From an uncultured Gammaproteobacteria bacterium (GTDB lineage: Bacteria > Patescibacteriota > Patescibacteriia > UBA9934 > GWF2-40-263), in assembly GCA_964399675.1 (NCBI GenBank), contig CAYNRK010000004.1, forward strand, positions 12,715-76,714: a stretch of DNA of 64,000 bases, in the 5' to 3' direction. Position 1 is the stretch's first letter, and each line of letters opens with the position of its first letter. This document shows positions 5,332 to 61,750 of the stretch, in pieces. The notes under the pieces were generated by a model that worked only from the letters and a program-made list of their open reading frames with translations, was not told the DNA's origin and did no database searches. A program made the position numbers and the translations under genes.

Positions 5332-5368
5332 AAGAGCTAATGAATCAGGATTAAACCAATATGATATA

Positions 5369-5413
5369 AAATTACTTATACCAACCGTGACGATCGTCAG
5401 TTATGGTATAAGT
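5369..5413. repeat. 44-bp perfect hairpin (cttatacca..tgacgatcgtca..tggtataag), copy 1
   Basis: Nested palindrome. Near-identical copies at 5948..5992 and 54185..54236. Confidence 0.8.
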
Positions 5414-5441
5414 AATTATTATCAATTCCGTAGTTTGAAAT

Positions 5442-5948
5442 ATGTCAGCTGATAAAAAACAACAAAAGCAAATCTCAAATCTTCTTGGTAAAATCAATAA
5501 CGAAGTGAACGCGTTGTTTTCAGCAAATTGGTCATATTGCGACAGGCGTCAGTGGATTGATATATCTGACGAAGACAAGGAAAGAATTTATCAATACAGA
5601 CGACTTCAGTATTTAAAAAGAAAAAAATGGATAAAAATTAAAAAAACTGAAGAGGGATTGCTTTGTTCATTAACTCAAGTAGGAAAGAAAGAATTACAAA
5701 GACGAGAAATTATTAAGAAAAAAGAAAAATTACCTGCAGGCCAAAAATGTCTTGTGATGTTTGACATTCCTGAAGATGCACGGTCGGGCAGACACGCACT
5801 TCGCCAGTTTCTTAAAAACGCTGACTTTAAAAGAATTCAACTCAGTGTTTGGGAAAGCGATCGTGATATTGGTGAGGAGGTGAAGAAATTTATAAAAAGA
5901 GCCGGTGTCAGCAAGTGGGTAATTGTGTTCGTTGGAAAGAAGTTATAA
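5442..5948 (+). CDS. hypothetical protein with C-terminal Cas2/VapD-like segment
   Basis: C-terminal CLVMFDIPEDARSGRHALRQFLKNADFKRIQLSVWES follows the Cas2 pattern hhhhYDI..R..L...G.R.Q.SVFE. No cas1 or CRISPR array in the window. Confidence 0.4.
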   Translation: MSADKKQQKQISNLLGKINNEVNALFSANWSYCDRRQWIDISDEDKERIYQYRRLQYLKRKKWIKIKKTEEGLLCSLTQVGKKELQRREIIKKKEKLPAGQKCLVMFDIPEDARSGRHALRQFLKNADFKRIQLSVWESDRDIGEEVKKFIKRAGVSKWVIVFVGKKL

Positions 5949-5992
5949 AACTTATACCAACCGTGACGATCGTCAATTATGGTATAAGTATT
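5948..5992. repeat. 44-bp perfect hairpin, copy 2 (direct repeat of 5369..5413)
   Basis: Sequence identity to copy 1 except one base in the loop. Confidence 0.8.
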
Positions 5993-6064
5993 TTTTTGAA
6001 ATTTTTTGGAGTGTTTTAGTTCTGTAACAAATTTATTCAGAGATTACAGTATTGATTGTCTTAG

Positions 6065-8743
6065 ATGTTAAAAAATCGTACAATACAATTGATGAACAGA
6101 AAATTTTTATGGCATTCGTTGTCTGTTGATGAGACTTTAAAAAAATTAAAGTCATCAATGGACGGACTGACAAAACGCGAAGTGGAGGAACGCCGCGAGC
6201 GTTTTGGTTTAAATGAATTACCAAAAGAAAAACCAGTGAAATGGTGGACAGTTCTTTTCGGTCAATTGTCCGGTCCAATGATTGTTATTCTGGCGATTGC
6301 TGCTTTTATAAGCGCTGGACTTCACGAGTGGGTTGATACTGGTGTTATTGTTGCTGCAATTGTTGTAAACACTGCCATTGGTTTTTTTCAGGAACTAAAA
6401 GCCAGTCGCGCACTTGAACATTTACAAGCTTTGGTTCAACCTCATGCTTTTGTTGTTCGTGATGGTAAAGAAGTATTTTTAACAGCCAAAGAAATTATTC
6501 CAGGAGACGTTTTGGTTTTGAAAACCGGAGACAGTATTACCGCAGACGCTCGTCTTATTGAATCAATTGATCTACAAGTAAACGAAGCGTCCCTTACCGG
6601 TGAATCAGTACCAATTTCAAAATCACTTGAGCCAAATAACCGCGGAACTGTTCTTGCTGAGCGAACCTGCATGGTTTTTGCCGGAACTGCAATAGTTGGT
6701 GGAAGAGGCCGTGCTGTTGTAGCTGCAACCGCAACCGACACAGAGCTTGGGTCAATTGCACAACTTGTTTCAGACACTAAAGAAACAAAAACACCACTGC
6801 AACACGAACTTGGTCGTCTGGCGCGATGGATTGCCGGCGCTGTTGTTTTTATAGTTGTAGCTCTTTTTTTTGCAGGGCTGTTTACCGGTCGAGATATAAC
6901 GGAAATGTTTGAGATTAGCGTTGCGCTTGCAGTGGCCGCTGTTCCTGAAGGATTAATTGTTTCTGTTACGATTATTTTGGCTATTGGAATGCAGAGGATT
7001 TTGCGTCGTAAATCTTTAGTACGTCGTCTTGTTGGTGCTGAAACTCTTGGGAGCGTGTCTGTTATTTGCACTGATAAAACAGGAACACTTACAGAGGGAG
7101 AAATGCAAGCCACGAAATTTTCGTTTCTTGATAAAGATGTTCAGTTGTCTGAAATGGTTGGTAAAACACTTACAGCTGGACCAAAAAAGATGGTAGAAAT
7201 TTCTGTTTTGTGTAATGACGCAAGTGTTGCTGAAACAGATGCAGAAGAAATCGAGCTTAGAGGAAGCCCAACTGAACGGGCGCTAATTGACGCAGCGCTT
7301 CGAGTAAACACTGATACAAAAAAGTTAATTGCATCACACAAGCGGCTTGCTGAGATTCCGTTTGATTCTGAGTACAAGTTTATGGTTACGCTGAATGAAT
7401 GGAAAGGAAAAGAGAATCGATTTTTATTAAAGGGCGCGCCGGATATAATTGTTGATTTTTGTGATCAAGTCGAAGTTGCTGGAAAAAAGAAAAAATTGAA
7501 TTCAACACAAAGGGCTTTGATTGATCAAAAGATAAAGGAGTTAACATCAGGTGGCATTAGATTGATAGCTTGCGCTTACAAGCCTTCAAAACAATCCCAG
7601 CCAGGTATTGATAAATCAAAGCTTGGTGGATTTATTTTTGTTGGATTTATTTGTTTACAAGATCCTTTGAGGCCGGATGTTAAGAAAAATATAATGGCAA
7701 CAAAAAAGGCTGGAGTGCAAACAGTTGTTATTACCGGCGATCATCCGCGCACAGCGCGGGCCATTGCAGAAGAGGCCGGGTTGTATTCGTCTGAAGAAAA
7801 TGTTGTAACAGGTGCTGAGATAGATTTGTGGTCTGATCAGGAGCTTGAAAAACGTGTTGGTAGGATTTCTGTTTATGCGCGTGTTGAGCCAGCACATAAG
7901 ATTCGTATTGTTCGCGCTTGGCAGGCTCGGGGCCATGTTGTTGCAATGACAGGCGATGGTGTTAACGATGCGCCAGCACTTAAAGCCGCGGATATTGGTT
8001 TGGCTTTGGGTTCAGGAACAGAGGTTGCCAAGCAAGCATCAGATGTTGTGATCATGAACAATAATCTTGGCACAATCTCAGCAGCGATTGAACAAGGGCG
8101 TGTGATTTTTGACAACATTAGAAAAGTCACTGTGTATTTAATGTCTGACAGTTTTACAGAAATTATTTTGATTGGTGGATCAATGATGCTTGGACTTCCA
8201 CTTCCACTTTTGCCAGCGCAAATTTTGTGGATCAATCTTGTTGCGGACAGTTTCCCGGGCGTAGGGCTCACGCTCGAACCCGGTGAAAGAGATACCATGA
8301 GTTTTCCTCCTCGGCCAAAGAATGAGCCGGTGTTGAACAAAGAAATGATTTCATTGATTTTTGTCATTGGAATTGTAACGGATGTTTTGTTGTTTGCTTT
8401 GTACTTCTGGCTTCTTGGTTCGTTTGATGATTTAAAGCTGGTTCAAACAATGATGTTTGCTGCGGTTGGAATTGATTCTTTGATGTACGTTTTTGCTGTT
8501 AAGAGTTTTAGAAAGCCGATTTTCAAGATCAATCCGTTTTCCAATAAATGGCTTATTTTAGGTATTTTGGTTGGTTTTGGGCTGATGTTGCTTGCAATTT
8601 TACATCCGTTTTTCCAGGAGATTTTTGAAGTCACATCCCTTGGCTTGTCGCACTGGGGTTTACTGCTTATGATAGGCTTGATAAAACTTATTGGTATTGA
8701 AGTTGCAAAGTGGTGGTTTATTCTTAAAAAGAAAAGAGCATAA
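6065..8743 (+). CDS. P-type cation-transporting ATPase (IIA-like, Ca2+/Mg2+ type)
   Basis: Phosphorylation motif CTDKTGTLT, hinge TGDGVNDAPALKAADIG, and 8-10 TM helices. Confidence 0.9.
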   Translation: MLKNRTIQLMNRKFLWHSLSVDETLKKLKSSMDGLTKREVEERRERFGLNELPKEKPVKWWTVLFGQLSGPMIVILAIAAFISAGLHEWVDTGVIVAAIVVNTAIGFFQELKASRALEHLQALVQPHAFVVRDGKEVFLTAKEIIPGDVLVLKTGDSITADARLIESIDLQVNEASLTGESVPISKSLEPNNRGTVLAERTCMVFAGTAIVGGRGRAVVAATATDTELGSIAQLVSDTKETKTPLQHELGRLARWIAGAVVFIVVALFFAGLFTGRDITEMFEISVALAVAAVPEGLIVSVTIILAIGMQRILRRKSLVRRLVGAETLGSVSVICTDKTGTLTEGEMQATKFSFLDKDVQLSEMVGKTLTAGPKKMVEISVLCNDASVAETDAEEIELRGSPTERALIDAALRVNTDTKKLIASHKRLAEIPFDSEYKFMVTLNEWKGKENRFLLKGAPDIIVDFCDQVEVAGKKKKLNSTQRALIDQKIKELTSGGIRLIACAYKPSKQSQPGIDKSKLGGFIFVGFICLQDPLRPDVKKNIMATKKAGVQTVVITGDHPRTARAIAEEAGLYSSEENVVTGAEIDLWSDQELEKRVGRISVYARVEPAHKIRIVRAWQARGHVVAMTGDGVNDAPALKAADIGLALGSGTEVAKQASDVVIMNNNLGTISAAIEQGRVIFDNIRKVTVYLMSDSFTEIILIGGSMMLGLPLPLLPAQILWINLVADSFPGVGLTLEPGERDTMSFPPRPKNEPVLNKEMISLIFVIGIVTDVLLFALYFWLLGSFDDLKLVQTMMFAAVGIDSLMYVFAVKSFRKPIFKINPFSNKWLILGILVGFGLMLLAILHPFFQEIFEVTSLGLSHWGLLLMIGLIKLIGIEVAKWWFILKKKRA

Positions 8744-8945
8744 CTCATCTTGCGTCGTTGCGAGGAGCGAAGCGACGAAGCAATCTCCGTGTTATTATGT
8801 CATCCCGACCGAGCGAAGCGAGCGGAGGGATCTCGCATATTCGAGATCTCTCCGTGCGCTCGCTTTGCTCGTTTAGTCGAGATGACAAAGCATGACTACA
8901 CGGAGATTGCTTCGTCAGTCGGCTTCGCCTCCTTCCTCGCAAAGA
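8744..8945. repeat. family-A nested palindromic element
   Basis: Same four modules as 2614..2853, almost base-for-base. Confidence 0.85.
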
Positions 8946-8961
8946 CGCGGGAAATACAAAT

Positions 8962-22505: not shown

Positions 22506-22612
22506 TTGCTGTCATCCCGAGCGAAGGCCCGTCAGACGGGCCGAAGCCGAGGGATCTCGAATATTGCGAGATCTCTCCGCTCGCTTCGCTCGGTCGAGAT
22601 GACATCTAGTAT
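22505..22612. repeat. family-A palindromic element (modules 3 and 4 plus the ggcccgtcagacgggcc submodule)
   Basis: gtcatcccgagcgaag..gagggatctcgaatattgcgagatctctcc..tcgagatgac. Confidence 0.8.
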
Positions 22613-24460: not shown

Positions 24461-24639
24461 AAAAAATTTGAAATTCAAAAGGAGAATTATCAATAAAACT
24501 CAATGTTGTCAATAATACTCATTCAATTTGATTATATCATTGAATTCTCAGCTTAGATACACTCTGGCAATTAAGGAGGTTCAAACGACTAAAACAAAAA
24601 CACCTTCAATTACAGCAAGGGTTTGTTGAGAACAAAAGA

Positions 24640-24690
24640 ATATACTTATAAAATACTTCGCGATCGCGAAGTATTTTATAACAACTTTTC
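24640..24690. terminator. perfect palindrome tacttataaaatacttcgcgatcgcgaagtattttataa (bidirectional terminator-like)
   Basis: Member of the TACTTATA..CGATCG..TATAAGTA hairpin family. Confidence 0.6.
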
Positions 24691-29677: not shown

Positions 29678-29732
29678 TTAAAAGACGGACATAAGGGTCT
29701 GTTTTTTGTTTGTGATATAATTATTCCTGTCA

Positions 29733-29885
29733 TCTCGACCAAGGCGTTACTTACCCTTGTCATCTCGACCAAGGTGCTACTTACCCTTGTCATCTCGACC
29801 AAGGTGCTACTTACCCTTGTCATCTCGACCAAGGTGCTACTTACCCTTGTCATCTCGACCGAGCGAAGCGAGCGGAGAGATCTTG
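29733..29885. repeat. tandem array of four and a half 30-bp units (ccttgtcatctcgaccaaggtgctacttac) running into a family-A module
   Basis: Direct tandem copies with no spacers. The unit equals the gtcatctcgacc end of family A. Confidence 0.85.
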
Positions 29886-30184: not shown

Positions 30185-30535
30185 TCGAGATTTCTCGCGT
30201 AAAGCGACGTGCCACGTAAAAGCTCAAGCACTCTACGTGGTGTGGTCGCCACGCGACTTTGCGTCGGCTTCGCTCGGGATGACAAAAAAGAAATAATTGT
30301 CATCTCGACCGGAGGCCCGTCAGACGGGCCGGAGCGGAGAGATCTCGAATATGCGAGATTTCTCCGCTCGCTGTGCTCGGTCGAAATGACATAATAATAA
30401 TTGGTCGAAATGACATGTATCGGTTGTCATCCCGAGCGAAGCCGAGGGATCTCGAATATTGGAACAACACGATTCGAGATTTCTCCGCTCGCTTCGCTCG
30501 GTCGAAATGACAGAAACGGCACTGACACATAGAAT
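30185..30535. repeat. cluster of family-A modules, including the cgcgtaaagcgacgtg..cacgcgactttgcg palindrome and three gtcat..gatctcgaatat..atgac units
   Basis: Read directly from the sequence. Confidence 0.85.
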
Positions 30536-35139: not shown

Positions 35140-35400
35140 CCACCCAGTGCGTCATTGCGAGGAGGTCAAAGGCCGACGAAGTCGAGCTCAGCTCGACGAA
35201 GCAATCTCCGTGTAGAGTCATACTTTGTCATCTCGACTAAGCGAGCAAAGCGAGCGCACGGAGAGATCTCGCATATTCGAGATCTCTCGCGTAAAGCGAC
35301 GTGGTCGCCACGCGACTTTACGTCGGCAAGCTCGAGATGACATAATAACACGGAGATTGCTTCGGCCCGTCTGACGGGCCTCGCAAAGACGCAAGTGAAC
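35140..35400. repeat. family-A module cluster
   Basis: gcgtcattgcgagg, the acgtaaagtcgcgtggcgaccacg palindrome, and gatctcgcatattcgagatc. Confidence 0.85.
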
Positions 35401-35402
35401 AT

Positions 35403-36014
35403 ATGAATGAGTTAAACGAACAATTTGAAATTGAGGAAGAGGCAGAGGCTCATGCCAATAGAATTGAAAATGGTGATGCCAGACATCGCCTGGCTATTCA
35501 AATGCTCAAACAAACGCGAGATAGTTTGAATCATGTAATCAATTTGCTTGAAGATGGTGATACTTCGCGTGCCACAAGACACATGGTTGATCTTGTAACA
35601 AATCGTAAAGGCAGCATGGAGGAGTTTGAGTCTGAGTCTGGTGCAGCAATGATTGAAGGGGTTTTTGACGGACAGACAATGGTTGGTGCAGATGGCATTA
35701 GTTATCCAATTCCTGAGAACTATGCATCAAAATCTCAATTGGTTGAGGGTGACATGTTAAAACTATTTTTACGACCAGATGGCACACACGTTTTTAAACA
35801 AATCGGGCCGGTTGATAGACAACGTGTTGTTGGTAAGCTTGAGCATGATTCTCAAACAGCAGAGTATGTTGTCATTCACGATGACAGCATGTATAAAGTA
35901 CTTGATGCAAGCGTTAGTTATCACAAAGGAGTGCCTGGTGATGAAGTGGCAATCTTGATTCCAAAAGGAGGGAAAAGCCGTTGGGCGGCTGTTGAAAGAA
36001 TTATCAATCTATGA
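35403..36014 (+). CDS. hypothetical protein (co-oriented with and overlapping dnaX start)
   Basis: ORF only. Confidence 0.4.
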   Translation: MNELNEQFEIEEEAEAHANRIENGDARHRLAIQMLKQTRDSLNHVINLLEDGDTSRATRHMVDLVTNRKGSMEEFESESGAAMIEGVFDGQTMVGADGISYPIPENYASKSQLVEGDMLKLFLRPDGTHVFKQIGPVDRQRVVGKLEHDSQTAEYVVIHDDSMYKVLDASVSYHKGVPGDEVAILIPKGGKSRWAAVERIINL

Positions 36015-37666
36015 GCCAAACATTATATAGAAGATATCGACCGGAAAAGTTTAAGGATATTTCAGGTCAGGAACATGTTGTTAAAACCCTGCAGAATCAG
36101 CTAAAAGCTGGTTCTGTTGCTCATGCATATCTGTTTACAGGGCCACGTGGGATTGGGAAAACCACAATTGCGCGTTTGGTTGCAAAGGCTATTAATTGCG
36201 AGAAAGTAAAAGAAAGCGAGCCATGCGGAAAATGTTCGTCATGTACAGAGATTACTACTGGAAATGCGCTGGATGTTTTTGAGATTGACGCGGCATCTCA
36301 CACTGATGTTGAAAACGTTCGTGAGAACATTATTAAAAATGTTCGATTTGCACCAAACAAGTTGAATCGAAAAGTTTATATTATAGATGAGGTTCACATG
36401 CTTTCAACCTCTGCTTTTAACGCGCTGTTAAAAACACTTGAAGAACCCCCAGAGCACGCATTATTTATTCTTGCAACAACTGAGATTCATAAAGTTCCTG
36501 AGACGATTATTAGTCGTTGTCAGCGTTTTGATTTTGCAAGGATTGACAAAGCAGAGCTTGTTAAGCGAATGAAAAGGATTTTGAAAAAAGAAGGGGTGGT
36601 TGTGGCTGATGATGTGCTTGCAGAGATTGCACGACACAGCGGTGGATTTGCGCGCGATGCGGAAAGCATGCTTGGCCAAGTGCTGGCATTGGGAGAAAAG
36701 GAGATCAGTATGGATCAGGCAATGCTTGTGCTTCCGGCAACCACAGCAATTATTGTTGAACAATTTATTGATTCAATGTTTTCCAAAGGAGCAGGGGAGA
36801 CAATCAAGCTTTTGAATCAGAATCTTGAGCAGGGAGTTGACCTTAAACATTTTTTGGATGATGTTATTTCAAAGTTGCGCGACCAGCTTCTTGAAACTGT
36901 TTCAGAAGGAAAGGCTTTAGTTTCTGTTGATCAGCTTCGGTTTGCAATTGAGAAATTTTTAAAAGCCCGCAGACATATTAATGTTGATCACTTGCCACAG
37001 CTTCCGCTTGAATTGGCTATTGTGGAGATTGTAAGTGAAGGAGCCAGGGATCAGGAGCTGGCTGTCGGGAATAGCACATCTGCGTCATTGCGAGGAGCCG
37101 AGGGCGACGACGTAAAGTCGCGTGGCAACCACGTTGCTTTACGCAAAGCAGTCTCCGTGGAAAAAAAAATTGAAAAATCGGATTTTAAGAAACAGGAGGT
37201 TGATTTGGATATCCAAGAAACACAACCCCTGTCATCTCGACCGAGCGAAGCGAGCGGAGAGATCTCGCATATTCGAGATCTCCCGGCTTCGTCCAACAAC
37301 AGCGAGGCTTTGCTTGAGACAGTACAAGAGGAGACTGTGTTCGATTCCGTCCCAGTCATATCACTCGAGGAAGTCAAAGAAAAATGGCCAACCGTGTTTG
37401 AGCAAATTCAAGAGTGCAATGCATCCTTGCCGTTATTTATGGAGTCCTGTGAGATTTGTGGAGTAAAAGACGATCATGTTGAGCTTGCGTTTGAATACGA
37501 TTTGCACGTTCAGGCAGTGAACAAAGAAAAGAACCGTGTGTTAATTGAAAAGGTGTTGGAAAAGGTTTTGGGTAAGAAAGTTAAGGTGAGGGCTTTGAAA
37601 ACAGAAAAAAAGGAATCAGATTCGGTCAAAGATTTGCTTGAAGAGTTTGGTGGGAGTGTAGTGTAA
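36011..37666 (+). CDS. dnaX: DNA polymerase III subunit tau/gamma
   Basis: YRPEKF..GQEHVV..AYLFTGPRGIGKTT clamp-loader AAA+ module. Carries an in-frame family-A repeat insertion at 37075..37300. Confidence 0.9.
   Translation: MSQTLYRRYRPEKFKDISGQEHVVKTLQNQLKAGSVAHAYLFTGPRGIGKTTIARLVAKAINCEKVKESEPCGKCSSCTEITTGNALDVFEIDAASHTDVENVRENIIKNVRFAPNKLNRKVYIIDEVHMLSTSAFNALLKTLEEPPEHALFILATTEIHKVPETIISRCQRFDFARIDKAELVKRMKRILKKEGVVVADDVLAEIARHSGGFARDAESMLGQVLALGEKEISMDQAMLVLPATTAIIVEQFIDSMFSKGAGETIKLLNQNLEQGVDLKHFLDDVISKLRDQLLETVSEGKALVSVDQLRFAIEKFLKARRHINVDHLPQLPLELAIVEIVSEGARDQELAVGNSTSASLRGAEGDDVKSRGNHVALRKAVSVEKKIEKSDFKKQEVDLDIQETQPLSSRPSEASGEISHIRDLPASSNNSEALLETVQEETVFDSVPVISLEEVKEKWPTVFEQIQECNASLPLFMESCEICGVKDDHVELAFEYDLHVQAVNKEKNRVLIEKVLEKVLGKKVKVRALKTEKKESDSVKDLLEEFGGSVV
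37075..37300. repeat. family-A repeat inserted in frame inside dnaX (about 75 codons)
   Basis: gcgtcattgcgagg..acgtaaagtcgcgtggcaaccacg..gtcatctcgaccgagcgaagcgagcggagagatctcgcatattcgagatctc lies within the ORF and translates as ..SLRGAEGDDVKSRGNHVALR..SSRPSEASGEISHIRDL... Confidence 0.8.
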
Positions 37667-38012: not shown

Positions 38013-38085
38013 ATTATCCTGAATTTTTAAGCGACAAAAAACTGAAACAGGGCAGCGGTAATGTTGTCTGGAAAAATTTCCTAGA

Positions 38086-38142
38086 AAAAAATACTTATAA
38101 AATACTTCTCGATCGAGAAGTATTTTATAAGTATTTTTTTGG
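38086..38142. terminator. 54-bp perfect palindrome (A-tract tacttataaaatacttctcgatcgagaagtattttataagta T-tract)
   Basis: Bidirectional terminator-like. Same family as 24640..24690, 5369..5413 and 54185..54236. Confidence 0.7.
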
Positions 38143-45576: not shown

Positions 45577-47433
45577 ATGACCGATCAAAAGCAAATTCGG
45601 AATTTTTGCATTATTGCACACATTGATCATGGTAAGTCGACCCTTTCGGATCGGCTTCTTGAATTTACCGGCACAGTTGAAAAGAGAAAAATGCAAAATC
45701 AGATTTTGGATACAATGGAGCTGGAAAGGGAGAAAGGAATTACAATAAAGCTTGCGCCGGCAAGGATGGAGTATGACTACACACCAATAACCCCCCCTAA
45801 CCCCCCCTTGAAAAGGGGGGGAACTTACGTTCTCAATCTAATTGATACTCCGGGTCATGTTGATTTTAATTATGAAGTTTCTCGATCATTGGCAGCTGTT
45901 GAGGGCGCAATACTTTTAGTTGATGCAACTCAAGGTGTGCAAGCGCAAACCATTGCAAATCTTTTTTTGGCCATTGAAGAGGATTTAGAAATTATCCCTG
46001 TTCTTAATAAGATCGATCTTCCGGCAGCAGATGTTCCAGCACGAACAAAAGAAATTGTGAAACTTATTGGATGTGATCCAAAAGAGGTTTTGGCTGTAAG
46101 TGGAAAAACAGGCGAAGGTGTTGAAGCGCTTCTTGATGCAATTGTTAAGCGCATTCCAGCACCAAAAGGAAATACAGATGCGAATCCTCGAGCTTTGATT
46201 TTTGATTCTTTTTATGATGACTACCGTGGAGTCATGGCTTATATTCGCATGGTAGATGGTTTGCTTGAGAAAGGTTCAAAAATTGAAATGATTGGAACAA
46301 GTGCGCGCGCTGAAGTGTTGGAAATAGGGGCTGTTACTCCAAATGGACTAAAACCAAGTCCTGAATTTTCAACCGGGCAAATCGGTTATGTTGTCACAGG
46401 GCTTAAAGATATTTCCGCATGTCGAGTTGGTGATACTATAACTTCGGGAACCCCCCCTAACCCCCCCTTGAAAAGGGGGGGAACGTCACCGCTTCCGGGC
46501 TATAAAGATGTAAAGCCAATGGTTTTTGCTGGAATGTTTCCGCAAGAAGGTAATGACTTTCAAAAGTTAAGAGAAGCAATTGAAAGGCTAAAATTAAATG
46601 ATTCAGCGTTGATTTATGAACCAGAACACTCACCGGCGCTTGGTTATGGATTTCGGTGTGGGCTTTTGGGAATGTTGCATTTGGAGATTTTAAAAGAACG
46701 ACTTGAGCGTGAGTTTAATTTGGAACTTGTTGTTACTGTTCCATCAGTTGCGTATCAGGTTCATCAGCGTTCCAAAGAAATGATTATAATCAAGAGTCCG
46801 CTTGATCTTCCGGATCCGTCACATATTGATTTTATTGAAGAGCCATGGGTAAAATTAGATATTGTTACACCAACGGATTATGTTGGTGCTGTAATGCAGT
46901 TGGTGCAGGATAGGCGCGGTACTTACAAGAACACAGAATACCTTTCTGAGAATCGGGCGATTTTGCATTACGAGATTCCGCTTTCAATGATCATTGTTGA
47001 TTTTTACGATAAACTTAAAGGAGTAACAGCCGGATACGCATCAATGAATTATGAGGTCATTGATTATCGTGAAGCAAATGTTGTGCGTATGAATATTTTA
47101 GTGGCTGAGGATACTGTTGATGCGTTTGCTACACTTGTCTATCGAGATGAGGCGGATAAGGCTGGACGGAGAATTGTGAAGTCACTTAAAGAATCAATTC
47201 CGCGAGCAAACTTTGTAATCAAACTGCAAGCCGCTGTTGGTGGTAAGATTGTTGCAAGTGAAAGAATTTCCGCAGTTCGAAAAGACGTGACTGCAAATTT
47301 GTATGGAGGTGACGTAACACGGAAGCGCAAACTGCTTGAAAAGCAAAAGAAAGGAAAAGCTAAAATGCTAGCTCATGGAAAAGGAAAGGTAAATATTCCA
47401 ACGAATGCATATTTGAATGTTTTAAAAAGATAG
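45577..47433 (+). CDS. lepA: elongation factor 4
   Basis: FCIIAHIDHGKSTLSDRLL G1 motif and LepA-specific C-terminal domain. Two in-frame family-C insertions (PPNPPLKRGGT) at 45789..45825 and 46449..46485. Confidence 0.9.
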   Translation: MTDQKQIRNFCIIAHIDHGKSTLSDRLLEFTGTVEKRKMQNQILDTMELEREKGITIKLAPARMEYDYTPITPPNPPLKRGGTYVLNLIDTPGHVDFNYEVSRSLAAVEGAILLVDATQGVQAQTIANLFLAIEEDLEIIPVLNKIDLPAADVPARTKEIVKLIGCDPKEVLAVSGKTGEGVEALLDAIVKRIPAPKGNTDANPRALIFDSFYDDYRGVMAYIRMVDGLLEKGSKIEMIGTSARAEVLEIGAVTPNGLKPSPEFSTGQIGYVVTGLKDISACRVGDTITSGTPPNPPLKRGGTSPLPGYKDVKPMVFAGMFPQEGNDFQKLREAIERLKLNDSALIYEPEHSPALGYGFRCGLLGMLHLEILKERLEREFNLELVVTVPSVAYQVHQRSKEMIIIKSPLDLPDPSHIDFIEEPWVKLDIVTPTDYVGAVMQLVQDRRGTYKNTEYLSENRAILHYEIPLSMIIVDFYDKLKGVTAGYASMNYEVIDYREANVVRMNILVAEDTVDAFATLVYRDEADKAGRRIVKSLKESIPRANFVIKLQAAVGGKIVASERISAVRKDVTANLYGGDVTRKRKLLEKQKKGKAKMLAHGKGKVNIPTNAYLNVLKR

Positions 47434-47534: not shown

Positions 47535-47615
47535 AGTTGTCATCCCGAGCGAGGCGCAGCCAAGCCGAGGGATCTCGCATATTCGAGATTTCTCCGCTCG
47601 CTGTGCTCGGTCGAA
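47535..47615. repeat. family-A palindromic element
   Basis: gtcatcccgagcgaggcgcagccaagccgagggatctcgcatattcgagatttctcc..tcgaaatgac. Confidence 0.8.
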
Positions 47616-49355
47616 ATGACAAAAAGAATGCAGTGGCGTGTTGCTGAGAAAATTTTAGAGGAAATCAAAAAACAGTTTCCGGAGATTGATCCGGCTGTTT
47701 TGCAATTATTGTTTAATCGCAACATTAAAACACAAGAAGAGATTGATGTTTATTTAAGTCCGGATTGGAGCCGAGACACTTTTTCACCTCATCTGTTTAA
47801 CAACATGAGTGAGGCGATCAAAAGAGTGTTTGATTCACTTGAGGCCGGTGATGTTATTACTGTTCATGGAGATTATGATGCAGACGGCGTATGCGCTTCG
47901 GCAATTCTAATATCAACACTTAAAGAAATTTGTCGAGAATTTGATTTTGATAAATTAAAAATCACTTCATATATTCCGCATCGCGAAAAAGAGGGTTATG
48001 GCATGTCTGTGGAAACGATTGAGCATCTTCATGAACACGACAAGACAAAACTTGTAATTGCTGTTGATTGCGGAATTAGCAACAAGCCGGCGGTTGATCG
48101 CGGAAAAGAACAGGGAATGGATACGATTATTTGTGATCACCACACAATGCCGGAAGAATTACCTGATCAAGCAATTCTGATTCATCCGTTGGTTCCAGGT
48201 GAAAAGTTTCCAAACAAGCATCTTTGTGGCACAAGTGTGGCGTTTAAGCTTGCAAGCGCTTTGTTGGATGAGGCGCGAACACGCGGGGCATCGTTTCCGG
48301 CGGGTTATGAAAAGTGGCTTTTAGATTTGGTTGCAATCGCAACTGTGACAGATGTTATGCCGCTAACAGGAGAGAATCGTGTGCTTGAAAAGTATGGTCT
48401 TTTGGTTTTGAATAAAACACGAAGAAAAGGCATTCAGAAACTTATTGATATTGCAGGTTCAAAAAAGGGCAAGCTTGATACTGTTTCGATTGGTTTCCAA
48501 CTTGGTCCTCGGATTAACGCAGCCGGAAGAATGACGCATGCCAATGAGGCGCTTGCGCTTATGGTTGAGGAAGATGATTTGCAAGCAACAAAGTTTGCAA
48601 TGCAATTGAATGATCGAAATAAAGAACGACAAGCAGCTTCTCAACAAATGTATTTGCAAGCAAAAAAACTTGTAAAAGACCCTGGCGATCAAAAGTTGTT
48701 GATTGTGTGTCAACAAGGTTGGCCAGCAGGGCTTGTGGGTTTGGTTGCCGGAAAGCTTGTGAATGAGTTTCATGTACCAACGTTTGTTGTTGGACAAGAT
48801 GGTGAAAAATTTGTTGGCTCAGGTAGGAGTATTAAAGGATTTGATATTACAAAGGCCATGCATGCAGCATCGGAACATCTTGATCGATTTGGTGGACATC
48901 CGGAAGCGTGCGGCTTTTCAACCACTGGTCAGGATCGATTTGAAAAAGCAAAAAGTGTAATGCTTGAATATGCTCAAACACAGATTAAAGATGAAATGCT
49001 TTTGCCAATCCTAAATATTGACGCAGAAATTGATTTTAAAGATGTTACATGGGATTTGCAAAAAGAGCTTGAAAAGTTTGAGCCATTTGGTAAGGGGAAT
49101 CCGCAGCCGATTTTTGCCAGCAAACAAGTTGAGGTTGTAGACAAAAGATATGTTGGGGCTGATGGAAAACATTTACGACTGACGGTTCGTTCACCGCGTG
49201 GTACCATAATGAAAATGATTGGGTTTCGATTTGGTGAAATGTTTGATCAACTCGAAATCGGAAAACCAATAGACGTTGCTTATGAGATTGGTGTTAATGA
49301 GTGGAATGGTAATAGGGAATTGCAATTAAAGATTGTGGATATTAAATTGAGGTAG
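47616..49355 (+). CDS. recJ: single-stranded-DNA-specific exonuclease
   Basis: DHH motifs (VHGDYDADGVCA; CDHH), DHHA1 and an OB-fold C-terminus. Track start 47514 is repeat read-through. Confidence 0.85.
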   Translation: MTKRMQWRVAEKILEEIKKQFPEIDPAVLQLLFNRNIKTQEEIDVYLSPDWSRDTFSPHLFNNMSEAIKRVFDSLEAGDVITVHGDYDADGVCASAILISTLKEICREFDFDKLKITSYIPHREKEGYGMSVETIEHLHEHDKTKLVIAVDCGISNKPAVDRGKEQGMDTIICDHHTMPEELPDQAILIHPLVPGEKFPNKHLCGTSVAFKLASALLDEARTRGASFPAGYEKWLLDLVAIATVTDVMPLTGENRVLEKYGLLVLNKTRRKGIQKLIDIAGSKKGKLDTVSIGFQLGPRINAAGRMTHANEALALMVEEDDLQATKFAMQLNDRNKERQAASQQMYLQAKKLVKDPGDQKLLIVCQQGWPAGLVGLVAGKLVNEFHVPTFVVGQDGEKFVGSGRSIKGFDITKAMHAASEHLDRFGGHPEACGFSTTGQDRFEKAKSVMLEYAQTQIKDEMLLPILNIDAEIDFKDVTWDLQKELEKFEPFGKGNPQPIFASKQVEVVDKRYVGADGKHLRLTVRSPRGTIMKMIGFRFGEMFDQLEIGKPIDVAYEIGVNEWNGNRELQLKIVDIKLR

Positions 49356-49378: not shown

Positions 49379-49475
49379 GAAATACTAACCACCCCTAACC
49401 CCTCCTTGAAAAGGAGGGGAATAATGCATGTCGGTTGAAAGTTCTCCCCCTTTTTAAGGGGGAGTTAGAGGGGGT
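49379..49475. repeat. family-C palindromic element (aaccacccctaacccctccttgaaaaggaggggaa) plus second hairpin tctccccctttttaagggggag
   Basis: Direct repeat of 49852..49892. The same core sits in frame inside lepA, ligA, pilD and the RimK-like gene. Confidence 0.85.
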
Positions 49476-49488
49476 TATGATTTTGGAT

Positions 49489-49848
49489 ATGTATAACGAA
49501 CTTTTCAATAAAAAAGAAAAGAAAACTTTCAGACAAAAATTACGAACTGATCCAACAGCAGCAGAAAAACAGTTGTGGCCACATCTGCAAGGTAGACAAA
49601 TAGAAGGATTGAAGTTTCGGCGTCAGCATGGAATCGGAAAGTATGTCGTCGATTTCTATTGTCCTGAAATCAAACTTATTATAGAGGTTGATGGTGATTC
49701 ACATTTTGAACCTGGAGCTCAAGAAAAAGATGTTGAACGAGAGAGAAGTCTTATTAATAGTGGTTTTCGAGTTTTGCGCTTTACCGATCGTGACATTTTT
49801 GATTCGATGGAAGATGTGATTGAAATTATAAAATCAAATTTATACTAG
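49489..49848 (+). CDS. DUF559 / Vsr-like (PD-(D/E)xK fold) endonuclease-domain protein, copy 1
   Basis: ..KFRRQHGIGKYVVDFYCPEIKLIIEVDGDSH..RVLRF.. pattern of the very-short-patch-repair-like DUF559 family. Start set after the repeat-derived 18 codons. Confidence 0.7.
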   Translation: MYNELFNKKEKKTFRQKLRTDPTAAEKQLWPHLQGRQIEGLKFRRQHGIGKYVVDFYCPEIKLIIEVDGDSHFEPGAQEKDVERERSLINSGFRVLRFTDRDIFDSMEDVIEIIKSNLY

Positions 49849-52740: not shown

Positions 52741-52890
52741 ATGTCCCCCTTTTCAAGGGGGACTACAGGGGGTTAGCATTTCATAAGCATAACCACCCCT
52801 AACCCCTCCTTGAAAAGGAGGGGAATAATGCATGTCGGTTGAAAGTTCTCCCCCTTTTTAAGGGGGAGTTAGAGGGGGTTAGCATTTTGA
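52741..52890. repeat. family-C element cluster (gtcccccttttcaagggggac; aaccacccctaacccctccttgaaaaggaggggaa; tctccccctttttaagggggag)
   Basis: Paralogous to 49379..49475. Confidence 0.85.
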
Positions 52891-52892
52891 AT

Positions 52893-53252
52893 ATGTATAA
52901 CGAACTATTTAATAAAAAAGACAAGAAAACTTTTAGACAAAAATTACGTACTGATCCAACAGCAGCAGAAAAGTTGTTATGGTTGCATTTGCAGGGTAAG
53001 CAAATGGAAGGATTAAAGTTTCGGCGGCAGCACGGAATCGGAAAGTATGTCGTTGATTTCCATTGTCCTAAAATTAAACTTGTTATTGAGGTTGATGGTG
53101 ATTCGCATTTTGAATCAGGAGCTCAGCAAAAAGATTCCGAACGAGAGCAATATCTAATCAACAAAGGTCTTCGAGTTTTACGGTTTACTGATCGTGACAT
53201 TTTTGATTCGATGGAGGACGTTGTTGAAATTATTCAATCAAACTTATACTAA
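52893..53252 (+). CDS. DUF559 / Vsr-like endonuclease-domain protein, copy 2
   Basis: About 90% identical to copy 1 at protein level (alignment by eye). Confidence 0.7.
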   Translation: MYNELFNKKDKKTFRQKLRTDPTAAEKLLWLHLQGKQMEGLKFRRQHGIGKYVVDFHCPKIKLVIEVDGDSHFESGAQQKDSEREQYLINKGLRVLRFTDRDIFDSMEDVVEIIQSNLY

Positions 53253-54044: not shown

Positions 54045-54184
54045 GATCTGGGAATCTGGAGCTCTGGTTACTAAGCTCTTTGAACTCTTGACTCCTAGCT
54101 CTCAACGGCCAATCACACTCGTGAACGGTCGTTTTTCAATTTAATTATTGATTTTTAAATTATCGAAAAACTTTTTAGAAAAAA

Positions 54185-54236
54185 TACTTATACCATTCGT
54201 GACGATCGTCAGTTTTGGTATAAGTATTTTTTAGTA
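54185..54236. terminator. perfect hairpin acttatacca..tgacgatcgtca..tggtataagt flanked by A-tract and T-tract
   Basis: Third copy of the 5369/5948 element. Confidence 0.7.
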
Positions 54237-54323
54237 TCCAATAAACAGCTTGCTGTTATAGTTACAAATTGTTGGCAATAATTTTTTGTTTTTTTCGTTT
54301 TCTCAACAAGTTTTTTGTGTTAA

Positions 54324-56348
<2,025 letters not shown>

Positions 56349-60464: not shown

Positions 60465-60545
60465 CTCATGTCATCCCGAGCGAGCGCAGCGAGCCGAGGG
60501 ATCTCGCATATCCGAGATTTCTCCACTCGCTGCGCTCGGTCGAAA
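60465..60545. repeat. family-A palindromic element
   Basis: gtcatcccgagcgagcgcagcgagccgagggatctcgcatatccgagatttctcc..tcgaaatgac. Confidence 0.8.
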
Positions 60546-60563
60546 TGACAAGGAAGTAAGGAG

Positions 60564-61664: not shown

Positions 61665-61750
61665 TATCCTGCGTCATTGCGAGGAGGCCGAAGGCCGACG
61701 AAGCAATCTCCGTACACGGGGATTGCTTCGGTCGCAAAGCTCCCTCGCAA
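61665..61750. repeat. family-A palindromic element
   Basis: gtcattgcgaggaggccgaaggccgacgaagcaatctccgtacacggggattgcttcggtcgcaaagctccctcgcaaagacgc. Confidence 0.8.

Follow-up and report, generated by a model that had tools for sequence, protein, structure and literature searches.

Palindromic repeat modules in frame within the dnaX linker of a Candidatus Uhrbacteria-like bacterium

The gene dnaX encodes the tau/gamma clamp-loader subunit of DNA polymerase III, and the copy studied here raises the question of how nucleotides that form hairpin modules between genes elsewhere in the same DNA came to lie, translated, within an essential replication gene. It is part of a 64,000-nt stretch from an uncultured bacterium (assembly GCA_964399675.1, contig CAYNRK010000004.1, positions 12,715 to 76,714; hereafter the window, to which all positions refer). 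A sequence-only reading of this stretch had proposed a palindromic repeat of about 225 bp, inserted in frame at 37075-37300 in the linker region of dnaX. That repeat DNA lies there in frame was borne out, whereas a single contiguous element was not: we find two patches with a host motif between them. We conclude that dnaX most probably gained two short modules from the genome's own nested palindromic repeats, which resemble repetitive extragenic palindromes (REP) and bacterial interspersed mosaic elements (BIME), one module on each side of the linker motif.

The open reading frame (ORF) at 36011..37666 (+) is an intact dnaX of 551 aa, scoring 464.4 bits against NCBIfam PRK05563 (cut-off 400) and 399 against TIGR02397 (cut-off 250). 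Pfam places the AAA+ clamp-loader N terminus (DNA_pol3_delta2) at residues 19-178 (1.3e-46) and the tau C-terminal domain (PF20964, DnaX_C), which follows the linker, at residues 447-536 (37.5 bits, cut-off 26.2). The peptides quoted in the sequence-only reading are the zero-frame translation of this ORF, which PRK05563 and Pfam identify as dnaX. The closest proteins are the DnaX subunits of Candidatus Uhrbacteria and other Patescibacteria, at just 57-61% identity, and the host genome is Candidatus Uhrbacteria-like.

Two repeat-derived patches in dnaX

The strings on which the earlier proposal rested were correctly placed, and they recur in the window far above the expectation from shuffled sequence. 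GCGTCATTGCGAGG, at 37082-37095, has 16 matches with up to two mismatches (0.26 expected); ACGTAAAGTCGCGTGGC, at 37110-37126, has 3 (0.10 expected); and the 36-nt GTCATCTCGACCGAGCGAAGCGAGCGGAGAGATCTC, at 37231-37266 (GTCATCTCGACC...GAGATCTC), has 6 (0.00 expected). When 37040-37330 was compared with the window by BLASTN, only 37070-37144 and 37225-37294 gave significant matches, and 37145-37224 gave only chance-level matches to repeat copies. The in-gene nucleotides are indeed intergenic modules elsewhere, as had been claimed, and the patches match the intergenic copies in the same BLASTN comparison. Judged from these alignments, dnaX holds two separate repeat-derived patches and not one 225-bp copy, with about 143 of 226 nt being repeat derived. 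We read two patches rather than one element because the middle stretch is unmatched and carries a motif, DFKKQEVD, that is shared with orthologues.

Patch 1 (37081..37160, +; about 80 nt; residues 357-384, SASLRGAEGDDVKSRGNHVALRKAVSVE) consists of a unit that we call A1 (TGCGTCATTGCGAGGAGCCGAGGGCGACG...AAAGCAGTCTCCGTGG), which encloses a second hairpin, A3; its borders are uncertain by about 2 nt. Aligned to the intergenic copies, the A1 unit reads TGCGTCATTGCGAGGAG..CGACG / AAAGCAGTCTCCGTGG, and the intergenic consensus is GCGTCWTTGCGAGGAGCGAAGCGACGAAGCAATCTCCGTGT. Its BLASTN matches lie at 8740-8791, 2801-2854, 35148-35182, 61669-61706, 35289-35334(-) and 30242-30277(-), and at the last two places the A3 module is likewise nested inside another unit. 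The A3 hairpin of dnaX (ACGTAAAGTCGCGTGGCAACCACGTTGCTTTACGC, 37110..37144, +) has a predicted RNA folding energy of -18.6 kcal/mol (z-score -2.9).

Patch 2 (37230..37292, +; about 63 nt; residues 407-428, LSSRPSEASGEISHIRDLPASS) is made up of a full 37-nt hairpin unit, A2, followed by a CATATT spacer and about 20 nt of an inverted partner; the remainder of the right arm is absent. It is 94% identical to 22539-22604(-) and 96% identical to 8798-8850, in addition to which the window has more than 13 copies, and the RNA hairpin predicted for it reaches -29.7 kcal/mol (z -3.6). The folding that the earlier reading had recommended as a check therefore gives predicted hairpins in both patches. Base composition follows the same division, with a GC content of 60% in patch 1, 57-60% in the two patches, 32% in the stretch that separates the two and 41% in the remainder of dnaX. 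Both patches keep the reading frame, and the C-terminal domain is intact. The predicted junction peptides within tau are SASLRGAEGDDVK and DLPASSNNSEALLETVQEETVFDSVPVISLEEVK. No direct repeats are visible, on reading the sequence, at the borders of the dnaX patches or of the intergenic composites described below, these borders being uncertain by about 2 nt without an empty site. A 114-aa ORF in another frame (37122-37466) and a 108-aa antisense ORF (37051-37377) were set aside as by-products of stop-poor, GC-rich palindromes.

The patches belong to a repeat family (family A) with 16 intervals in the window, most of them intergenic or at ORF edges; in this census, only the two dnaX patches lie deep within a well-supported ORF. 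The intergenic copies are mosaics of 200-245 nt, in which outer A1 arms surround an inverted pair of A2 units flanking CATATT or AATATT, and A3 or GC-rich mini-hairpins are sometimes nested in the loops. Such composites, found at 2623-2845, 8752-8948 and 35149-35392, have terminal inverted repeats (start GCGTCWTTGCGAGG, end CCTCGCAAAGACGC) and an A1-to-A2 spacer of just 6-20 nt. Inverted A2 pairs around CATATT or AATATT occur at 2701-2788, 8799-8886, 22511-22603, 47539-47620 and 60470-60549. Hairpin units range from 37 to 45 nt, and the commonest form of A2 has 37 nt. We take A2 units to be true hairpin cassettes with a stem maintained by compensatory changes, their head and tail dinucleotides being complementary in 24 of 24 units (CT/AG in 11, CC/GG in 8 and TT/AA in 5).

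Our reference copy, as read from the sequence, is the 244-nt composite at 35149..35392, in which A1 arms are combined with an A3 hairpin and with two inverted A2 units on either side of CATATT. This composite occupies the 263-nt gap that separates a TraG-like gene from a 203-aa ORF, and the same gap measures 1-50 nt in eight orthologous loci. The filled gap is a separate line of evidence that the repeats were inserted in this lineage. No Rfam family matches the repeats, and viral contigs gave no match to an exact A2 unit. Repeats at the 5' ends of the ORFs at 22506 (ftsX-like), 47514 (recJ) and 40321(-) (rimK-like) were considered as N-terminal insertions and rejected. These ORFs begin inside A2-type repeats and are probably over-extended start calls, because their Pfam domains begin 90-140 residues downstream.

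Two further kinds of repeat were seen in the window. At 29718-29870, four to five units of 30 nt (TACTTACCCTTGTCATCTCGACCAAGGTGC), each beginning with the A2 head, are repeated in tandem, and the array runs into a complete A2 at 29849. AT-rich, near-perfect palindromes of the form ACTTATAAAATACTTC.CGATCG.GAAGTATTTTATAAGT follow gene ends at 38085-38138, 24636-24689, 5366-5427, 5942-6003 and 54178-54239, and look terminator-like; Rfam microRNA matches on the one at 38085-38138 were sub-threshold and were dismissed as spurious.

A linker predicted to be disordered and its recurrent insertions

The protein context suggests why such modules could be tolerated. In an AlphaFold2 model built on 32 sequences, the N-terminal body with AAA+ domains I-III (36011..37078, +; residues 1-356) is folded with a confidence (pLDDT) of mostly 85-95, its last helix ending at residue 356, in agreement with Pfam. 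The C-terminal domain DnaX_C (37355..37648, +; residues 449-546) forms alpha/beta elements at a pLDDT of about 75-83, as expected from PF20964 and from the orthologue alignment, in which it can be aligned to all 31 sequences. Both flanking domains are thus modeled confidently, whereas residues 357-448, which include both patches, lack secondary structure and score a pLDDT of about 31. The position that the sequence-only reading had given, between the AAA+/domain III part and the C-terminal tau domain, holds, as does its view that the insertion is tolerated: frame and domain are intact, and the site is predicted to be disordered. The segment also varies in length. The window's linker has 102 aa, or about 54 without the patches, and linkers extracted from 96 relatives range from 29 to 109 aa (median, 63.5).

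The reading frames of the repeats impose a second filter. The short units are free of stop codons in three to four of six frames. Most frames of the 200-245-bp composites are interrupted by stops: one composite has no open frame among the six, and each of two others has one or two. This difference would explain why only short modules are found in frame.

Between the patches lies a 69-nt, AT-rich stretch of host sequence (37161-37229) encoding DFKKQEVD, the sole linker motif kept among orthologues. The motif (GAT TTT AAG AAA CAG GAG GTT GAT, 37181..37204, +), recognized as host derived from the relatives' linkers, is present in most of the 96, and its codons, third positions included, are nearly invariant across 10 dnaX DNA sequences. 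In the Uhrbacteria form, DF(K/N)(K/Q)QGVDSxR, TTT is used in 10 of 10 cases, CAG in 8 of 8 and GTT in 9 of 9, and Gly is always GGG, in contrast to the PQLP and VFD codons of the same genes, which vary freely. Synonymous positions of GATTTTAAGAAGCAGGRGGTTGAT (nucleotide stretch GATTTTAAGAAGCAGGGGGTTGAT) are therefore frozen across genomes that have otherwise freely diverged; examples from other loci are at about 5060-5085 in L001, 5096-5120 in L161 and 2624-2648 in L168. The motif contains a Shine-Dalgarno (SD)-like AGGAGG or AGGGGG as well as -1-frame stop codons. Three roles for it were rejected. It is not a repeat, as it occurs once in the window (allowing up to three mismatches) and only within dnaX in the fetched loci; no X_XXY_YYZ heptamer fits a frameshift site; and the in-frame TTG after AGGAGG, a conceivable internal start, is not conserved. 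The DnaX linker appears to be a repeated sink for repeat DNA, and yet one short motif in it does not change even in its synonymous positions, which points to an uncharacterized function of that motif.

Insertions of this kind recur in relatives. The patch segments themselves are absent from all 31 aligned DnaX orthologues, and none of these encodes the same peptide by unrelated codons, the pattern that would have spoken against a repeat insertion. However, the dnaX linkers of two relatives (L161 and L166) contain A2- and A1-type modules in their DNA, on both sides of the motif and at positions or in frames other than those of the window, and many relatives carry an A2-type unit just upstream of the motif. 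Peptide 5-mers from six-frame translations of the window's intergenic repeats are found at 7.5 per 1,000 aa in relatives' linkers and at 0.8 per 1,000 aa in the folded parts (9 times fewer). The linkers give 48 such matches, whereas shuffled linkers give 11 on average and at most 17, and 22 of the 96 proteins have at least one. Scans of genome and metagenome contigs with peptide motifs were dominated by the generic strings IDEVHMLS and YIIDEVHM and yielded one useful Uhrbacteria locus, L001.

The sequence-only reading had also spoken of a second, unrelated repeat family inside a replication gene, and this too was found. The G/C-rich family B (AACCCCCCCTAACCCCCCCTTGAAAGGGGGGG) occurs in frame once in ligA (NAD-dependent DNA ligase; 54810-54855) and also twice in lepA (45784-45829 and 46444-46489), encoding a 12-residue peptide in each case. 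Against the solved LepA and LigA structures (PDB 2ywe and 2owo), the two lepA insertions and the ligA insertion appear as gaps of 10, 5 and 7 residues, and all three sit inside folded domains. The window therefore holds five in-frame repeat insertions in three core genes. Family B repeats also border two direct 300-nt copies (49386-49685 and 52790-53089) that are 90% identical to each other.

We propose the following course of events. Short, GC-rich modules of about 80 and 63 nt, with no stops in the sense frame, would have landed in a disordered segment of variable length, where they would be translated as about 27 and 21 extra residues of the tau linker and would leave the clamp-loader body and the C-terminal domain undisturbed. 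They are probably selfish or neutral passengers that passed a filter, being in frame, free of stops and in a tolerant region of the protein. The same process would recur in the DnaX linkers of relatives and, with another family, in lepA and ligA. As to how the modules move, hairpin-directed transposition in trans and template switching are candidates.

An A9 run beside patch 1 and other accounts of the insertions

Immediately after the end of patch 1 (37160) lies a run of nine A residues (37161..37169, +; GAA AAA AAA ATT at 37160-37171, codons 384-387), which holds the zero-frame heptamer A_AAA_AAA and is the sole A/T run of at least nine in the 64 kb. The -1 frame reads AAT TGA after the run, so that a stop codon (37171..37173, +) follows one codon past it; the predicted product would have 387 aa and end in ...VSVEKKN, and the -1 translation of 37147-37230 is SSLRGKKN*. 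In the +1 frame, no stop is met for about 100 codons. The sequence-only reading had advised a search for the recoding typical of dnaX, and the search thus yielded a candidate. In Escherichia coli, a -1 frameshift at A_AAA_AAG is followed by a stop one codon later, and in Thermus thermophilus, transcriptional slippage takes place on an A9 run of dnaX (PMC1088944, PMC5009743).

It is possible, although doubtful, and compatible with the insertion of modules, that this site is a recoding cassette, in which slippage on A9 (one extra A) or a -1 ribosomal frameshift on A_AAA_AAA would give a gamma-like product of 387 aa with domains I-III. The uniqueness of the run argues for this, as does the depletion of such runs in the coding regions here: runs of at least eight A were observed 5 times compared with 11.3 expected under a shuffle of synonymous codons, and those of at least nine once compared with 4.2. 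This depletion agrees with the described selection against slippage-prone runs (PMC1088944). The run lies about 28 residues past domain III, and its -1 frame encodes KKN and then a stop, which recalls both the one-codon stop of E. coli and the A9 of Thermus. In addition, two relatives have long runs in the corresponding position, which is 0-9 nt upstream of the linker motif: an A10 (1480-1489) in L169 and an A9 (1727-1735) in L170, with -1 stops 4 and 3 codons later. However, such a run was seen at this site in only 3 of 12 Uhrbacteria dnaX DNAs examined, the 9 other orthologue DNAs being without it, and L169 and L170 were chosen for their Lys-rich peptides, so that the sampling was not random. 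As AAA makes up 67% of Lys codons, an A9 is not rare given the peptide EKKI, and L170 has a second A9 (886-894) inside its AAA+ domain, so that such runs are evidently tolerated without function. There is no near +1 stop, so that transcripts lacking one A or gaining two would be translated into a meaningless tail of about 100 aa, unlike in Thermus, and no SD-like element was found upstream of the run. In another relative, L162, an E. coli-type heptamer A_AAA_AAG (CCA AAA AAG) was noticed at about 5090, with a -1 stop 6 codons later.

That the repeat hairpins themselves have been co-opted as stimulators, patch 1 acting in the nascent RNA 5' of the run and the structure of patch 2 acting 3' of it, is distinctly improbable. 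The outer helix of patch 1 in its minimum free energy fold closes at 37160 and thus abuts the run, which recalls the Roseiflexus IS630 element, in which slippage is stimulated by nascent stem-loops that lie directly 5' of the slippery run (PMC5009743). This helix is weak, its z-scores of -0.7 to -1.3 not being significant against shuffles. A structure is predicted 3' of the run (-48.9 kcal/mol, z -5.5); it begins 9 nt past the heptamer and includes patch 2, although the strong downstream hairpin itself is 60 nt distant. The broadest version of the idea would be that a subgroup of Uhrbacteria makes a gamma-like subunit by A9/A10 slippage, stimulated here by the hairpins of selfish repeats, and that Patescibacteria carry a Rickettsia-like load of in-frame repeats in core genes (dnaX, ligA and lepA); taken as a whole, we hold this to be unlikely. 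If it were true, an essential replication gene would use a recoding signal recruited from selfish palindromic DNA. In any case, the A9 run, closely followed by a -1 stop, is a concrete candidate for gamma/tau production in this phylum.

The proposal of one composite of about 225 bp, inserted whole so that 37075-37300 would be repeat DNA throughout, is very unlikely. The series of A1, A2, CATATT and the start of an inverted A2 does match the left half of the three intergenic composites (2623-2845, 8752-8948 and 35149-35392). However, none of the repeat copies significantly matches 37161-37229, an interval that has 32% GC and encodes DFKKQEVD at the orthologous place in most relatives with near-identical codons; moreover, the equivalent spacer of the composites has only 6-20 nt, and complete composites have stops in most frames. 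That the ORF is a chimera of metagenome contigs joined at repeat copies is hardly credible: the repeats are numerous and similar enough (>90% over 50-66 nt) to confuse short-read assemblers, but the N-terminal body, motif and C-terminal domain follow one another collinearly in a single frame and can be aligned with orthologues from end to end, the neighboring genes (upstream, the TraG-like gene followed by the 203-aa ORF, whose stop overlaps the dnaX start by 4 nt; downstream, RimK and the next gene) are arranged as in eight orthologous loci, and independently assembled relatives carry insertions of this kind as well.

We therefore prefer the gain of two separate modules, against which four points weigh. 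The order and orientation of the patches (A1, then A2 with CATATT) are those of the left half of the composites, an arrangement not quite to be expected if the two had been inserted independently. The searches turned up no near relative with an unoccupied site (the best match has 57-61% protein identity), and for this reason the exact borders, target duplications and number of events are not provable. Part of the recurrence in linkers may reflect shared ancestry or a hot spot and not independent events. Finally, the insertions are presumably neutral, but this is assumed, and the adjoining of patch 1 and the A9 run could signal a function.

Two separate module insertions would mean that selfish palindromic DNA invades coding genes outside Rickettsia too, in the tiny genomes of uncultured Patescibacteria. 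In-frame repeats affect annotation, homology searches and comparisons of protein length in these lineages, and the insertions can be regarded as natural experiments on the regions of proteins that tolerate them.

Likeness to known recoding and repeat systems

As a potential recoding site, the dnaX studied here resembles those of E. coli and Thermus in having a sense-strand A9 downstream of domain III and a predicted short product that comprises domains I-III, and it resembles that of E. coli in a -1 frame that ends one codon after the run. Unlike in Thermus, there is a nearby stop in the -1 frame only and not in both shifted frames, and unlike in E. coli, there is no upstream SD-like stimulator. 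The derivation of the flanking structures from repeat DNA sets the window's run apart from known dnaX recoding sites.

[quoted passage not shown] The composites of the window share the terminal inverted repeats. At the dnaX patches, with their borders uncertain by about 2 nt, reading of the sequence reveals no target-site duplication, and the copies in dnaX are partial single modules and not complete elements.

The REP and BIME repeats of Enterobacteria and Pseudomonas are extragenic by definition and are mobilized by REP-associated tyrosine transposases (RAYT). Family A resembles them in its imperfect palindromic units of about 35-40 nt, the stems of which are kept by compensatory changes, and in the alternating orientation, short conserved spacers (here CATATT or AATATT) and mosaic clusters of these units, which are mostly intergenic. 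It differs from them in that copies also occur in frame inside genes and in that one hairpin may sit in the loop of another (A3 within A1 or A2). Neither a RAYT (IS200/IS605-like) gene nor a conserved 5' GTAG-type tetranucleotide came to light, although no search was aimed at them.

The closest parallel is with the Rickettsia palindromic elements (RPEs; Ogata et al. 2000), which PMC10969869 presents as palindromic repeats that lie between genes and in frame within unrelated genes. Our literature search found no description of in-frame repeats in the candidate phyla radiation or Patescibacteria, although their absence is not proven thereby. As with RPEs, short palindromic repeats are found both between genes and inside the ORFs of unrelated, often essential genes; the copies are in frame and so are translated as an extra peptide, at insertion sites compatible with the protein fold; and several repeat families are present in one genome. 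In contrast, no sequence relationship is apparent, Rfam giving no match, and the host belongs to the Patescibacteria/Uhrbacteria and not to the Alphaproteobacteria. RPEs have about 100-150 bp and encode a conserved peptide, whereas the repeats here are hairpin cassettes of 37-80 nt that nest and pair into mosaics, a description that sets them apart from the RPE families. The dnaX copies also differ in lying in a disordered linker and not on the surface of a folded domain, although the family B copies in lepA and ligA are in folded domains. We conclude that the phenomenon, while not a member of the RPEs, works as they do, with modular hairpins of the REP/BIME kind and in a different phylum.

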